DNA from: an uncultured Fimbriimonadales bacterium
GTDB lineage: Bacteria; Armatimonadota; Fimbriimonadia; Fimbriimonadales; GBS-DC
DNA: 27,823 nucleotides
Direction: 5' to 3'
Assembly: GCA_964470265.1 (NCBI GenBank)
Contig: CAYYCA010000002.1
Span: 1-27,823, forward strand
A program made the translations under genes and the position numbers. Within the stretch, counting starts at the first letter, position 1, and every line of letters starts with the position of its first letter. Under the pieces are notes generated by a model, which had not been told where the DNA came from, searched no databases, and saw only the letters and a program-made list of their open reading frames with translations. Positions 3,058 through 26,675 of this stretch are shown here, piece after piece.

Positions 3058-3848
3058 GACCTGAACTCGTCAAAATCGGACCCGTCACGCTCTACACCTA
3101 CGGCTTCATGTGGATGGTGGGCATCTGGCTCGCTGTGTGGCGGGCGCTACGCTACGCGCCGCGCTACGGAATCAAACAGGACGATGTACTGGATATCGCC
3201 TTCTGGAGCGTCGCGCTGGGGATTGTGGGGGGACGACTTGCGTTCGTAATCACCAACTGGTCGCAATACGCGCCCGATCCGCTCAGTGTGTTTCGAGTAT
3301 GGGAAGGGGGGATGTCGTACTTTGGGGGCTTCGGTCTGGCGATAGTGACGGCGATTTATCTGATCCGCAGGCGCGCCATCCCTATCTGGCAACTGGGCGA
3401 TTTAGCCGCGCCGTCGCTCGCGCTGGGCTACGCAATTGCGCGTATCGGGTGCTTCGGCGCGGGATGCTGCTACGGCGCGCCCACTGACCTGCCGTGGGGC
3501 GTGCGGTTCCCTGGAATGGATCACCCTGTGCATCCTACGCAGCTCTATGCGACTGGGATGAACCTGCTGATTTTCGCAATTCTCTCCGTCTGGGCGACGC
3601 GCCGTCGGTTCGAGGGGCAACTTTTTGCGAGTTTTCTCATGCTGCACGGGCTGTATCGGTTCATCAACGAGTTCTTTCGCGCGGGCGCGACCTCGAAGCT
3701 GATGGTGGGTATGTTCACTTATGGGCATCTGGTTGCGCTGCTGGTCGTTCTGATTGGGGCGGGGCTGTATGCTGTGCTGGCTCAGCGGGCGAAGCAGGTA
3801 TACTCTCTGCCGACGGAGAGAGACGACCATGGCAGGCTACGCCCCTGA
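3054..3848 (+). CDS. lgt: Prolipoprotein diacylglyceryl transferase
   Basis: YTYG, WEGGMS, ARIGCF, HPTQLY and RFINEFFR motifs; ATGA overlap with lspA. Confidence 0.92.
   Translation: MRPELVKIGPVTLYTYGFMWMVGIWLAVWRALRYAPRYGIKQDDVLDIAFWSVALGIVGGRLAFVITNWSQYAPDPLSVFRVWEGGMSYFGGFGLAIVTAIYLIRRRAIPIWQLGDLAAPSLALGYAIARIGCFGAGCCYGAPTDLPWGVRFPGMDHPVHPTQLYATGMNLLIFAILSVWATRRRFEGQLFASFLMLHGLYRFINEFFRAGATSKLMVGMFTYGHLVALLVVLIGAGLYAVLAQRAKQVYSLPTERDDHGRLRP
3795..3804 (+). promoter_or_regulatory. Putative internal -10 element CAGG-TATACT for tkt, inside the lgt 3' end
   Basis: Same 10-mer as before ylxP and alaS; followed by GGAG and the tkt ATG 24 nt later. Confidence 0.45.
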
Positions 3849-10502: not shown

Positions 10503-11237
10503 TCAGTGTTCGTGTCGGATGAGTGTGCCAATCGGTTCGCCTAAGACGATTCGGCGCAGGTTGCCCGGCTCCCAGATATTAAAAACGACCACCTCCATCG
10601 TGCGTTCCATACACAGGGTGAAGGCGGTCAAATCCATAATGCGCAGTTGGCGTTGCAGGGCTTCCTCGAACGAGAGGGTGTCGTATTTGACAGCGTCGGG
10701 ATGTTTGCGCGGGTCGCGGTCGTAGACGCCGTCGACATTCGTGGCTTTGAGCAGCGCGTCGGCGTTGAGTTCGACGGCGCGGAGCGAGGCGGCGGTGTCG
10801 GTGGTGAAAAACGGGTTGCCCGTGCCCGCCGCCAGAATCACGATTCGCCCTTTTTCGAGGTGGCGGAGGGCGCGTCGTCGGATGAACGGCTCGGCGACGG
10901 CTTGCATCGCGATGGCGGATTGTACGCGCGTATCCACGCCGTGCCGCTCGATAGCCGCCTGCAGCGCAAGCGCGTTGATGACCGTGGCAAGCATACCCAT
11001 ATAGTCGGCGGTCGCGTGTTCGATGCCCGTGGGAGCAATCGCCGCGCCGCGTACGATATTCCCGCCGCCCACCACCACCGCGGTCTGCACACCCAGCCGA
11101 TGAACCGCAATCACCTCGCGCGCGAGGTAGTCGATCGACTCAGGGTCTAACCCAACGCCCTGTTCCCCTGCGAACGCCTCTCCACTCAGTTTAATCAGAA
11201 TCCGTCGCCATCGCGGCTGCAACTCCGAGCCTTCCAT
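10503..11237 (-). CDS. pyrH: Uridylate kinase
   Basis: LIKLSGEA, VGGGNI, ADYMGMLATVINA, GTGNPFFTTD and NVDGVYDRDP. Confidence 0.97.
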   Translation of the reverse strand: MEGSELQPRWRRILIKLSGEAFAGEQGVGLDPESIDYLAREVIAVHRLGVQTAVVVGGGNIVRGAAIAPTGIEHATADYMGMLATVINALALQAAIERHGVDTRVQSAIAMQAVAEPFIRRRALRHLEKGRIVILAAGTGNPFFTTDTAASLRAVELNADALLKATNVDGVYDRDPRKHPDAVKYDTLSFEEALQRQLRIMDLTAFTLCMERTMEVVVFNIWEPGNLRRIVLGEPIGTLIRHEH

Positions 11238-11246
11238 GTCGGCAAA

Positions 11247-11305
11247 AGTATACCCTGCAGACGCCCCGCCGTCAGCCCCATCGGTTGCTCCGATTCAGGT
11301 ATACT
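11247..11305. promoter_or_regulatory. Divergent -10 elements for pyrH (minus, TATACT 11252..11247) and alaS (plus, CAGG-TATACT 11296..11305)
   Basis: CAGGG-TATACT lies 9 nt before the pyrH ATG; CAGG-TATACT lies 22 nt before alaS ATG 11328. Confidence 0.55.
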
Positions 11306-15762: not shown

Positions 15763-15814
15763 GTAGCACGGACAGTCCTGTCCGTGCTCGCTTGGACAGG
15801 ACTGTCCAAGCTCC
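15763..15814. repeat. REPIN-like inverted REP pair between divergent promoters
   Basis: GTAG-CACGGACA-GTCC-TGTCCGTG-C (15763..15787) and, on minus, GGAG-CTTGGACA-GTCC-TGTCCAAG-C (15814..15790). Confidence 0.85.
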
Positions 15815-15820
15815 ATGGGG

Positions 15821-15826
15821 TATACT
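15821..15826 (+). promoter_or_regulatory. -10 element TATACT of the leaderless RAPP uORF
   Basis: GGGG-TATACT-ctattt-ATG 15833; no SD. Confidence 0.6.
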
Positions 15827-15832
15827 CTATTT

Positions 15833-16138
15833 ATGCACAGGCGCACGCTTCGACGCGCCGCAGTGCTGGCGGCAGTGGTCTGGCTGATCACCATCGTATC
15901 AGCCGAGCTTTTGCACGCCGTCATCGAGTCCGAGAGTCAGGCTACGCATCGGCAGTGCCCGGTCTGTCTGTTCCACTCCACGCATGGTCAGACCCACCAG
16001 CCCGACACGGTGCTGAAGCCTGTGTTGCTGTTGACGCTGGTTGAAGCAGCGCCGGCGCCTGTCTACTCGGAACTGATTCCCAAATCGTATCTTGCGTTTC
16101 ATCGGAGCATTCGCGCCCCGCCTGCGCACGCGCTGTGA
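15833..16138 (+). CDS. DUF2946-like (CruR/CutF-like) leader protein with CxxC and a C-terminal RAPP arrest motif
   Basis: 101 aa: basic N-terminus and hydrophobic helix, [17 protein letters not shown], Pro-containing linker, [10 protein letters not shown]. This layout matches the described DUF2946 architecture; no profile search was run. Confidence 0.7.
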
Positions 16139-16257
16139 GGCTCCCGCTGCGGACGCACGCTGCGTCTGACGCGGTCTCTCGGCGCGGGCAGGCAAGTCCT
16201 GCTTGCGGTTCGTCCGCCATCGTTGGCGGCGCAACTATTGGCAACAGGAGGCAAACG

Positions 16258-17055
16258 ATGAAACGCAATGGCTTCACGCTGATTGAACTGCTGGTCGTGA
16301 TTGCGATTATCGCGATTCTGGCGGCGATTCTGTTCCCGGTGTTCGCGCAGGCGCGCGCAAAAGCCCGCCAGACCCAGTGCTTGAGCAACATGCGCCAGAT
16401 TGGCGTCGCGGTGAACATGTACCTTAACGACTACGACGAGGGCTACCCCTTCACGATGGCGATTATCAACGGCGTGCCCAGCACGGTGAACTACTGGGCG
16501 GTGCATAACTATCAGGCGGCGCTGGAGCCGTATATCAAGATGGATCGCGGACTGCGCAACAAGCAGAACATCTGGTGGGATCCGTCCGACCCTGACCGCA
16601 GCGTGCCCGCGATGTGGGGGTCGTTTACCACGAACGGCTTCTTTACGGCGATGCCGCGCCGTCTGGCGGAGGTGACGCGCCCTTCGAACACGCTCTACTC
16701 CATCCTACGCGGCGACCCGTGGGTGCGCATCACGGGCATTAACCCGCCGAACCCGCTGCCCACGGATAACCCGAACCATCCGTTCTGGGTGTCGGAGTTC
16801 TTTGATATGTGCTTAGACCCGTGGGCGGAGACGACCGATGTGAACCATCCCTACCACTGGTCGAAGGGGCGTGCTACGCCGCCGTGCAGCCTGTTCCCGA
16901 ACGCGGCGCACTGCGGCGACTGGGATCAGCAAATCGCCAAAACGCGCTATCAAGGTGGAACCGCCGCGCTCTATGCCGACGGGCACTCCAAGCATGTGCG
17001 GTTCCCACAAACCTATCGCGCGATTGACGATAACCAGTGGAGTATTAACCTGTAA
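16258..17055 (+). CDS. Prepilin-type N-terminal cleavage/methylation protein (DUF1559-type, H-X9-DG-like C-terminus)
   Basis: MKRNG|[39 protein letters not shown] class III signal; C-terminal [14 protein letters not shown]; SD AGGAGG at 16246..16251. Confidence 0.92.
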
Positions 17056-17674: not shown

Positions 17675-17728
17675 TTGCATGCTCAACGCGATTATTAGGT
17701 ATAATACGCCTTCGCGAGTGGGTATACT
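17675..17728 (+). promoter_or_regulatory. Candidate tandem promoters for rpmJ-rpsM-rpsK-rpsD-rpoA-rplQ
   Basis: TTGCAT (17675..17680), N19, TATAAT (17700..17705); second GGG-TATACT at 17723..17728. Confidence 0.5.
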
Positions 17729-24965: not shown

Positions 24966-26675
24966 TTGCACGCGCCGAAACCAATCCCGTTCGACAGCCT
25001 GAACCTGTACGCGGTCTTGCAGGAGCGCGGCTTTTTCACGGGCGGGCGGATTCAGGAGATTCGCCAGCCCGACGCGCTGACCATCGTGCTGCACATTTAC
25101 GCCCAGCGCGTGGAGCATCGCCTGCTCATTTCCGCCGACGCGCAACACGCCCGGATGCACTGCATCAGCCACAAGACGCCGAACGCGCCCACGCCCCCGC
25201 CGTTTCTGCAGAGCCTGCGCAAACACATCGACGGCGGGATTATTCGGAGCCTGCAGATGGTCGGGTTTGATCGCATCGTGCAGTTCGAGATTCAGACGCG
25301 CGAGGGGGTCTATCGGCTGATGGTCGAGCTGATGGGCAAGCATTCGAATATCATCCTTGTGGAGCCAGTGGGGGTGATACGGAGCGCCATCAAGTGGGTT
25401 TCTCCGCGTCAGAGCGAGGCGCGCCCGATTCGCGCAGGCGAGCCGTACCAGCTGCCCCCGACGCGCGTGGCGGGGCTGCTGAACCCCCTCGCGATGTCCG
25501 ACGACGATTGGCGCGCGCTTTGGGAGCGCATGGGCGCGGAACGCGATTGGCAGGCGCATTTGGAAGGGCTGAGTCGGTTCACCGCAGGCGAGCTGGAAGC
25601 GATTGCGCAGGCGCGCGGGCTGGACGGCGTGCTGGAATGGGCGCATCGGCTGCGCGAGGGGCTGTGGGAGCCAGTCGCCATTCGCGAACCGCAGACCCGC
25701 CGCGTTCTCGGCGCGTATCCGTTTCGCAGCCTGCAGTTTCCCCCAGAATGGCAACACTCCCGCGCGAGCGTTAATCTCGCATGGGAGCAGGTGTTCGCGG
25801 AGCGCACCCAGCAGGCGCGTGTCGACGCCCTGCGCCAGAGCCTGCTGCCGAACCTGCGCCGTGCGCTGGAAGCCCGCCAGCGCGCCGCCGCCGAACTGCA
25901 GCGCGCCCTGCAGGACAGCCAGCAGGCAGATCGATGGCGTCTGTACGGCGAGCTGATACTGGCGTATGGACATACGCTGCCCGCCGGCGCAACCACCCTA
26001 CACGCTCCCGACTACACGCAGCCCGAAACGCCCCTGATCGAAATCCCCATCGACCCCAGCAAAACCGTCGCTGAGAACGCCGAGCGCTACTTCCAGAAGG
26101 CGCGCCGCGCCCGCGAGAGCCGCGCGGAGCTGCAGAAACGCCTCGAACGCCTGCAGGACGAACTCGCTCAGATACAGGGCGCGCTGCTGGAGATGGAGAG
26201 CAACCCCGACGAGGCGACGCTGCGCCAGATTCATGAGCAGGCGAAGGCGCACGGCTGGCTGCGCGAGGCGTCCCCGCTCGCCCCCGCCAAACGCGTCGAG
26301 AAAGACCCGTTCGAAGGGCACAAAATCCGGCTGCATCTTAGCCCCGACGGCTATCAGGTGCTGGTCGGCGAGAACGCGCAGGCGAACGATTTCTTGCTTA
26401 CCCGCATCGCCAAGCCGAACGACTGGTGGCTCCATGTGCGCACGGGCACAGGGGCGCATGTGATTATTCGCACGGAGAACCAGCCCCAGCGCACGCCGAG
26501 AAGCACGCTGGAGTTCGCCGCGCGGCTCGCGGCGCAGCACAGCGCGGACAAACACGCCCGCATAGTGGAAGTGGACTACACGCTCCGCAAATATGTGCGC
26601 AAGCCGAAAGGCGCGCCGCCCGGCTTCGCCCTCTACACGCACGAAAAGACCCTGCGCGTAGAGATGAAGCCCTGA
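24966..26675 (+). CDS. rqcH: NFACT family ribosome quality-control protein RqcH (FbpA-like)
   Basis: GFDRIV, ELMGKHSNII, long coiled coil (ENAERYFQKARR), NFACT-R W.LH...GAHVII and VDYT..KYVRKPKGAPPG; TTG start after GGAGG. Confidence 0.88.
   Translation: MHAPKPIPFDSLNLYAVLQERGFFTGGRIQEIRQPDALTIVLHIYAQRVEHRLLISADAQHARMHCISHKTPNAPTPPPFLQSLRKHIDGGIIRSLQMVGFDRIVQFEIQTREGVYRLMVELMGKHSNIILVEPVGVIRSAIKWVSPRQSEARPIRAGEPYQLPPTRVAGLLNPLAMSDDDWRALWERMGAERDWQAHLEGLSRFTAGELEAIAQARGLDGVLEWAHRLREGLWEPVAIREPQTRRVLGAYPFRSLQFPPEWQHSRASVNLAWEQVFAERTQQARVDALRQSLLPNLRRALEARQRAAAELQRALQDSQQADRWRLYGELILAYGHTLPAGATTLHAPDYTQPETPLIEIPIDPSKTVAENAERYFQKARRARESRAELQKRLERLQDELAQIQGALLEMESNPDEATLRQIHEQAKAHGWLREASPLAPAKRVEKDPFEGHKIRLHLSPDGYQVLVGENAQANDFLLTRIAKPNDWWLHVRTGTGAHVIIRTENQPQRTPRSTLEFAARLAAQHSADKHARIVEVDYTLRKYVRKPKGAPPGFALYTHEKTLRVEMKP

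Follow-up and report, generated by a model that had tools for sequence, protein, structure and literature searches.

What controls a pilin-like gene that stands behind a small gene whose product carries a CxxC pair and, just before its C-terminus, the arrest motif RAPP? The question is raised by a two-gene locus in DNA of an uncultured Fimbriimonadales bacterium (GCA_964470265.1, contig CAYYCA010000002.1, positions 1-27,823, forward strand); the whole of this stretch of 27,823 nucleotides (nt) is referred to here as the window. A preliminary description had proposed that the first gene, of 101 residues, is a metal-sensing ribosome-arrest leader and that the second, encoding a pilin-like DUF1559 protein of 265 residues, is its target. 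Here we report a comparative and in silico analysis of the locus. Leader and pilin-like gene form a conserved pair, the stall codons of the leader appear to double as an anti-Shine-Dalgarno segment, and the explanation that fits best, which we regard as somewhat probable, is that translation of the pilin-like gene is switched by ribosome stalling in the style of CutF, SecM and MifM. The leader open reading frame (ORF), the CxxC and RAPP motifs, the spacer, the Shine-Dalgarno sequence and the pilin-like gene were all found where the preliminary description had placed them (Table 1).

Comparison with homologues indicates that the leader ORF is a real gene, beyond chance. Eight homologues of about 100 residues were recovered in a first search and 43 in a profile search; every record name that identifies an organism is Fimbriimonadales or Armatimonadota, and the reading frame is kept across the set. 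In alignment A1, which holds nine leader sequences at 60-92% identity, the mean column identity is 78%, the whole peptide being conserved, and the invariant residues include H28, C42, P43, C45, L46-F47-H48, T50-H51-G52 and R94-A95-P96-P97. Alignment A5 adds members at 27-36% identity, and M1, R8, W17, L27, H28, C42, C45, R94, P96 and P97 are still invariant there; H48 and H51 are invariant in A1 only. Members of the wider family, whose identity falls to about 26-36%, retain CxxC and a RAPP tail, one of them having RGPP, and RVPP replaces RAPP in one metagenomic lineage (loci L022 and L023). The most distant leaders (26-31% identity) show the motif NLLHPLxH...DCLVC...PRAPP. The spacing between C45 and R94 amounts to 48 residues in the window and to 48-49 in five distant loci, and the two motifs that had been singled out in the leader are thus kept among its homologues together with their spacing. 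The predicted signal segment reaches a Kyte-Doolittle maximum of 2.55 over residues 10-24. An upstream ATG at 15815 was considered as the leader start and ruled out by conservation, which favours the ATG at 15833.

The transcript of this pair is probably leaderless, starting at or next to 15833, because a -10 box ends 6 nt before the conserved ATG. The motif GGTATAMT occurs in eight copies in the window compared with 0.2 expected by chance, and it is therefore evidently the -10 element of the lineage. In the subfamily of the window the arrangement of GGTATAMT, 6 nt and ATG is found in 24 of 24 loci, despite differing upstream genes, which supports the earlier suggestion of a leaderless ORF; in more distant loci a -10 motif lies 6-9 nt upstream of the leader ATG. 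The pilin-like gene had been thought to lack an evident promoter of its own, and we agree: GGTATAMT is absent between 15826 and 17698, and a consensus scan detected no sigma-70-like promoter on the + strand of the spacer. The spacer was also scanned for a terminator-like site or a hairpin followed by a U-tract, and none was found.

The spacer between the two genes is highly structured. Alignment A4 comprises 18 distinct spacers, for which a consensus fold was calculated with RNAalifold; it consists of three hairpins (H1, H2 and H3) and a long-range helix in which the Pro-Pro codons and the next base (CCN-CCU-N) are paired with N-AGGAGG of the pilin Shine-Dalgarno region. Standard pairs occupy 95.2% of the cells of the consensus structure, compared with 30-48% after displacement of the 3' partners by 1-3 columns, and 51 cells have changes on both sides, compared with 20.2 +/- 3.7 in shuffles; not one of 500 shuffles reached 51. 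The spacer hairpins covary. Three hairpins had been drawn here before: H1 and the core of H3 are as given then, and H2 proved to be longer. The apical sequence of H3, GCCAUCGUUGGC (A4 columns 127-138), is identical in 16 of the 18 spacers, the base of its stem covaries, and GGAGG is invariant in all 18. A search of Rfam gave no known RNA family in the spacer; its single match was at chance level and lay outside the spacer.

The codon for Pro97 is under nucleotide-level constraint. It is CCT in 20 of 20 distinct sequences, although CCT makes up 8.5% of the Pro codons in eight genes of the window. Eighteen invariant residues have four or more synonymous codons, and only Leu18 (CTG) and Pro97 (CCT) are encoded by a single codon throughout; the other four invariant prolines use three to four codons each. 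The outgroup locus L026 has CCA as its second Pro codon and UGGAGG as its Shine-Dalgarno flank, a compensatory change that leaves a perfect helix of 8 base pairs (bp). From these comparisons the stall codons appear to serve a second time as the anti-Shine-Dalgarno segment.

Folding of the mRNA agrees with occlusion of the Shine-Dalgarno sequence, which had been put forward as a point to be checked. In the free mRNA it is mostly paired, its mean unpaired probability being 0.10, and 0.17 in the window, and the predicted probability of pairing between the Shine-Dalgarno and the Pro-Pro codons averages 0.71 over 18 orthologues. A stalled ribosome was represented by a footprint of 30 nt, centred on the RAPP P-site and forced to be unpaired. 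With this footprint on RAPP the in silico exposure of the Shine-Dalgarno rises from 0.10 to 0.42, and in the window from 0.17 to 0.78, the predicted partner varying by clade. When the footprint is moved along the leader, exposure peaks only with the P-site on the Pro96 codon, at 0.34 against a baseline of 0.11 (window, 0.78 against 0.17). Synonymous recoding of Pro97 in silico lowers the pairing probability from 0.71 to 0.45-0.49.

Table 1. Features of the leader-pilin locus and copies of the -10 motif, in window coordinates
Feature	Position	Strand	Remarks
-10 element GGTATACT	15819..15826	+	TATACT at 15821-15826; ends 6 nt before leader ATG
Leader ORF, 101 residues	15833..16138	+	Stop codon 16136-16138; homologues aligned in A1 and A5
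Hydrophobic helix, residues 9-27	15857..15913	+	Follows Arg-rich N-terminus; signal peptide or signal anchor
CxxC, C42-P-V-C45	15956..15967	+	Flanked by conserved H28, H48 and H51
RAPP arrest motif, R94-A-P-P97	16112..16123	+	CGC GCC CCG CCT; followed by AHAL and the stop codon
Putative anti-Shine-Dalgarno CCGCCUG	16118..16124	+	Pro-Pro codons plus one base; RNAalifold columns 22-28 with 161-167
Spacer, 119 nt	16139-16257	+	Leader stop codon to pilin-like ATG
Hairpin H1	16150..16168	+	Six pairs in consensus structure, two changing on both sides
Hairpin H2, 10 bp	16183..16207	+	4/10 pairs change on both sides
Hairpin H3	16211..16231	+	Core 16214-16229; 3/8 pairs change on both sides
Shine-Dalgarno AGGAGG of pilin-like gene	16246..16251	+	6 nt before ATG at 16258
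Pilin-like gene, 265 residues	16258..17055	+	Prepilin-type (N_methyl)/DUF1559; Pfam and NCBIfam matches
Copies of GGTATAMT	968-975, 2468-2475, 3797-3804, 11247-11254, 11298-11305, 15819-15826, 17698-17705, 17721-17728

The pairing of leader and pilin-like gene is conserved among loci; its absence had been named beforehand as a finding that would speak against the proposal. Loci of the window type have the leader followed by the gene for the 265-residue protein across a spacer of 117-126 nt, and in more distant loci the gap is 99-207 nt. The genes around the pair vary. Upstream stands an ABC exporter in the window, L004 and L007, an H+-PPase gene in L001, CcmE/CcmF genes in L002, an IscA-like gene in L009 and a GFO/IDH/MocA oxidoreductase gene in L026, and the downstream neighbour is variable as well. 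The divergent ABC exporter of the window had been mentioned as a possible part of the system; since the pair recurs beside at least five different upstream neighbours, we place the exporter outside it. The unit in the window sits among housekeeping genes, with alaS upstream and infA, rpsM, rpsK, rpsD, rpoA and rplQ downstream.

Distant leaders (L027 4397-7094, L028 and L030) head a larger operon that contains genes for a 309-residue protein with a weak, sub-threshold dockerin-like match and for a PEP-CTERM protein, and that ends in a DUF1559 pilin of 225-230 residues; the link between leader and DUF1559 therefore spans two operon architectures. L027 and L028 contain an additional gene of 133 residues, giving five genes, and the L027 copy matches SaoD/DsrE (NF040913, 203.6 bits, above the cut-off). 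Other orders of Armatimonadota also have orthologues of the pilin-like protein, at 45-60% identity, and in both of the loci examined there is no leader upstream. One of these, from Capsulimonadales (L032 1-4528), encodes a 59%-identical orthologue that lies on the same strand 55 nt after MntH, at the end of a run consisting of a DtxR-family regulator, a rubrerythrin-VIT1 transporter and MntH (Nramp). This context, in a single locus, is one independent hint of a link to Mn/Fe; the second leaderless locus showed no link to metal genes. Signs of decay of the leader-pilin module were observed on one group of metagenome contigs (L020-L024) and may represent either real pseudogenisation or assembly errors: the Shine-Dalgarno and the N-terminal part of the pilin-like gene are lost in L020, the pilin-like ORF is shortened to 107 and 113 residues in L021 and L022, and its ATG has become ACG in L024.

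The pilin-like protein itself was identified by matches to N_methyl (PF07963; 36.5 bits, threshold 21.2) and TIGR02532 (35.6 bits), and by a match to DUF1559 (PF07596; 28 bits, threshold 23.3) that covers only profile positions 2-34 of 268. TIGR04294, the model of the C-terminal H-X9-DG motif on which the NCBI naming of prepilin-processing-associated relatives is based, does not match the protein of the window; it does match the pilin of the second subfamily in L027. An AlphaFold2 model with a predicted local distance difference test (pLDDT) score of 92.4 consists of a long N-terminal helix (residues 8-58) and a globular domain. Structural and sequence searches of the PDB matched only the N-terminal pilin helix and returned no relative of the globular domain, and nothing about function was gained from the structure. 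The conserved residues are mainly Asp, Trp and Pro, together with a nearly invariant pair, C210/C219. To our knowledge, DUF1559 and prepilin-type proteins form large paralogous families to which no function has been assigned.

The switch that we propose would operate as follows. The two genes would be transcribed as one unit from the promoter that ends 6 nt before the leader ATG, giving a leaderless mRNA, and the leader would be a small exported or membrane-anchored peptide; at its RAPP tail the ribosome would be arrested, with the P-site occupied by Pro96 and the A-site by Pro97. We infer stalling by analogy with CutF, CruR and ApdA/ApdP, and the register would be that of the CruR toeprint (PMC12992588). 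In the free mRNA the pilin Shine-Dalgarno would be paired, with the Pro-Pro codons in most orthologues and with the 3' arm of H2 in the window; a ribosome parked on RAPP would cover the 3' end of the leader and free the Shine-Dalgarno, at which a second ribosome could then start the pilin-like gene. The duration of the stall would be set by the fate of the segment with CxxC and His residues, 48 residues upstream, after it has left the exit tunnel. Candidate inputs are a thiophilic metal, for example copper, bound by CxxC and the flanking His residues, or disulfide formation during export. It is the motif alone that would suggest a metal as the signal and a direction for the response; copper relieves the stall on CruR but induces it on CutF, so that either direction may apply here.

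Several observations weigh against this switch or against parts of it. For the window the Shine-Dalgarno is predicted to pair with the Pro-Pro codons with a probability of only 0.18, and across the window and three other loci of its clade (L001, L004 and L010) this value ranges from 0.00 to 0.25. The predicted fold of the window pairs the Shine-Dalgarno with an alternative partner, the H2 3' arm UCCUG, the H2 5' arm being engaged by the 3' end of the leader ORF; the exact pairing therefore differs between clades, and the second subfamily has no consistent pairing of Pro-Pro codons and Shine-Dalgarno. Four of the six pairs of the long-range helix never vary and are therefore without covariation signal; one covaries (A-U, G-C, G-U). 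Another possible source of the CCT constraint is a decoding effect at the A-site. Shuffling of the spacer leaves the pairing at 0.61 compared with 0.71 for the native sequence, so that a requirement of the hairpins for the predicted Shine-Dalgarno pairing is unsupported and the three conserved hairpins are left unexplained by a stall switch; possible roles of H1-H3 are those of a pause site, a protein-binding site or a folding scaffold. With regard to metal, the pilin-like protein has no Cys/His cluster resembling a metal site, and the genes flanking the module are mostly housekeeping genes.

The same leader and the same stall could have a transcriptional output, as in CruR, in which the stalled ribosome blocks Rho or favours an antiterminator fold and RNA polymerase reads through the spacer. 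CruR is the closest precedent that combines RAPP and CxxC, and it acts through Rho-dependent termination in an intergenic region of 162 bp; a leaderless mRNA would moreover guarantee tight coupling of the first ribosome to RNA polymerase, and the three hairpins, being unneeded for Shine-Dalgarno pairing, could be pause or termination signals. By inspection the spacer is G+C-rich with about as much G as C and almost fully structured, which makes it a poor rut site, and these properties, together with the lack of a hairpin and U-tract in it, make a Rho-dependent variant less likely. Pairing with the Shine-Dalgarno is what the CCT constraint and the L026 compensatory change specifically indicate, and we regard a transcriptional output as distinctly unlikely. 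The nucleotide-level constraint at Pro97 and the pairing with the Shine-Dalgarno also speak against the view that the 101-residue product is a stable small membrane protein that partners the pilin-like protein as a chaperone or anchor, with RAPP in a structural role. Conservation of the entire peptide in A1, beyond the two motifs, would fit such a protein; RAPP, however, is strongly avoided in bacterial proteomes unless it serves arrest (PMC12992588), and the pilin-like orthologues of other Armatimonadota do without the leader. We consider this very improbable.

An arrest leader could also respond to something other than metal. It might monitor export, membrane insertion or periplasmic disulfide formation in the manner of Sec/YidC monitoring substrates, with pulling force or oxidation of CxxC releasing the stall, so that synthesis of the pilin is tied to the capacity of the envelope. 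The RAPP peptides ApdA and ApdP are secretion monitors, RAPP-containing upstream ORFs (uORFs) with conserved Cys pairs also precede DsbA and thioredoxin genes (PMC12992588), and the CutF model has the stall relieved by the formation of the disulfide itself; the pilin-like protein has its C210/C219 pair and needs Sec-dependent insertion and prepilin peptidase. On the other hand, the downstream gene lies outside the export and oxidative-folding machinery, so there is no obvious feedback loop, and H28, H48 and H51 around CxxC fit metal ligation. Most of the classes enriched behind RAPP uORFs in the PMC12992588 data are metal-related, and a leaderless pilin-like orthologue directly follows the DtxR-family, VIT1 and MntH run described above. 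On balance we judge a monitor of this kind to be rather unlikely. A broader conjecture would make DUF1559 proteins extracytoplasmic metal-handling effectors, for example in capture or uptake by a pseudopilus, which in Armatimonadota are placed under a CxxC-RAPP sensor whose stall codons are the anti-Shine-Dalgarno; this is doubtful at present, and if true it would provide the first functional handle on the DUF1559 family.

The leader had been likened to DUF2946 leaders, and the search against that profile does not bear out membership. Pfam DUF2946 (PF11162) aligns to the leader from CxxC through the C-terminus below threshold (E = 0.007, 17.4 bits; 17.4-17.6 against a gathering score of 23.7), and eight of nine members of the leader family match it only at E of 0.002 or weaker. 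When 1.84 billion representative proteins were searched exhaustively with a profile, only a handful of relatives came back, none of them a canonical DUF2946 protein, and an hhalign comparison of the leader family with planctomycete leaders that precede DUF1559 genes gave probabilities of 17-37%. The spacing between CxxC and RAPP is fixed at 48-49 residues compared with 45 +/- 2 for DUF2946/CruR. What the leader does share is the architecture, in which an export signal at the N-terminus is followed by CxxC and, close to the C-terminus, by RAPP, and the position, first in the operon with a long gap to the next gene. Homology to canonical DUF2946 is thus not established. Since the Pfam match is sub-threshold and the profile search was empty of canonical members, we call the leader DUF2946-like only; as judged from these profiles it is a family with DUF2946-like architecture and no demonstrated member of DUF2946.

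Some further features of the window were observed around the promoters. One copy of GGTATAMT (11247-11254, minus strand) precedes the start codon of the gene at 10503..11237 by 9 nt, and leaderless or near-leaderless mRNAs may therefore be common here. Many related loci have an inverted copy of GGTATAMT about 25 nt upstream, which suggests back-to-back divergent promoters. Two perfect palindromes, at 15766-15787 (GCACGGACAG-TC-CTGTCCGTGC) and 15792-15809 (TTGGACAG-GA-CTGTCCAA), share the core GGACAG-N2-CTGTCC. The ABC exporter probably starts at a GTG (15735, minus strand), and the palindromes fall in the 97 nt that separate this codon from the leader promoter. L004 retains the first palindrome and L010 part of the second; loci with a different upstream neighbour have neither, which rules the palindromes out as an operator of the leader-pilin module, and they may be an operator or a 5'-UTR (untranslated region) hairpin of the ABC exporter. 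A gene for an NFACT/RqcH-type protein is located at 24966-26675, and its co-presence is probably coincidental.

The locus had also been singled out as a candidate for an undescribed system, a claim that stands in part. The source data of Fig. 4A/B in Fujiwara et al. (EMBO J 2025, PMC12992588) list 'DUF1559 domain-containing protein' among the 30 most enriched classes downstream of such uORFs. In those data, DUF1559 genes follow small uORFs with RAPP in 112 cases compared with 68 for AAPP (6.5-fold), and with RGPP in 116 compared with 24 (8.7-fold); about 92-93% of these DUF1559-associated uORFs are predicted to be secretory. Example uORFs in the tables carry CxxC, and one of them, REK33014.1, is annotated as DUF2946 by NCBI. 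Entries of the DUF1559 class are in the source tables only and go undiscussed in the main text of that paper. The CruR paper (PMC9426467) assigns DUF2946 genes mostly to Proteobacteria, with a few in Planctomycetes, and leaves pilins unmentioned, and the CutF paper uses 'PILIN' among the signal-peptide classes by which CutF-like and downstream proteins are sorted. Because these source data list it, the pairing of RAPP leaders with DUF1559 is already on record. No Armatimonadota or prepilin-annotated entries were found in the accessible portion of the source tables. To judge from the comparisons made here, the additions are a divergent, apparently Armatimonadota-restricted family with its leaderless arrangement and 48-residue spacing, and comparative evidence that stall codons may double as the anti-Shine-Dalgarno segment. 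The gain is incremental, as the general principle and the DUF1559 association are already in the literature.

The locus is of use in several respects. A conserved sensor-like leader in front of DUF1559 genes would give these a concrete regulatory input, the metal or redox state of the envelope. It also offers a compact natural case of RAPP arrest, with a leaderless mRNA, 101 residues, a fixed spacing of 48 residues and an anti-Shine-Dalgarno that would be formed by the stall codons, and it adds Armatimonadota, a phylum on which few experiments have been done, to the range of CxxC-RAPP leaders.

Among known systems, CutF upstream of cutO in Rhodobacter capsulatus (bioRxiv 10.1101/2022.11.11.516240 and 10.1101/2025.02.05.636593) works by stalling that melts a stem-loop shielding the Shine-Dalgarno. 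CutF and the present leader are both small, Sec-targeted and first in the operon, and each has a Cys motif and, at the C-terminus, a stall site built on proline. In each, structure in the mRNA, here as predicted, shields the Shine-Dalgarno of the next gene until it is opened by a stalled ribosome. The Cys motif of CutF is CxxxC and its stall site is PPP, sensitive to elongation factor P (EF-P), whereas this leader has CxxC and RAPP; the target of CutF is a multicopper oxidase and here it is a pilin-like DUF1559 protein. Unlike in CutF, the role of anti-Shine-Dalgarno here appears to fall to the stall codons, which lie some 125 nt away from the Shine-Dalgarno with three hairpins between, on a leaderless mRNA. 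CruR (Bp2923), upstream of bfrG in Bordetella pertussis (PMC9426467), resembles the leader in its N-terminal export signal, CxxC, RAPP near the stop codon and fixed spacing, as well as in its long intergenic region and first position in the operon. It differs in passing the DUF2946 threshold, in a spacing of 45 compared with 48-49 here, and in its output by Rho-dependent termination, its TonB-dependent transporter target and its occurrence in Proteobacteria. ApdA and ApdP would share the same RAPP arrest chemistry, and SecM and MifM the opening of a sequestered Shine-Dalgarno by a stalled ribosome; all four regulate Sec or YidC components and lack CxxC. As in RAPP-type arrest peptides in general, the leader is a small secretory or membrane protein with RAPP near its C-terminus, at residues 94-97 of 101. 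The layout is the same in the DUF1559-associated uORFs in the source tables of PMC12992588, which likewise combine a signal peptide, CxxC (CPICLYQ in REK33014.1, CPVCLFH here), a C-terminal RAPP and a DUF1559 gene downstream.

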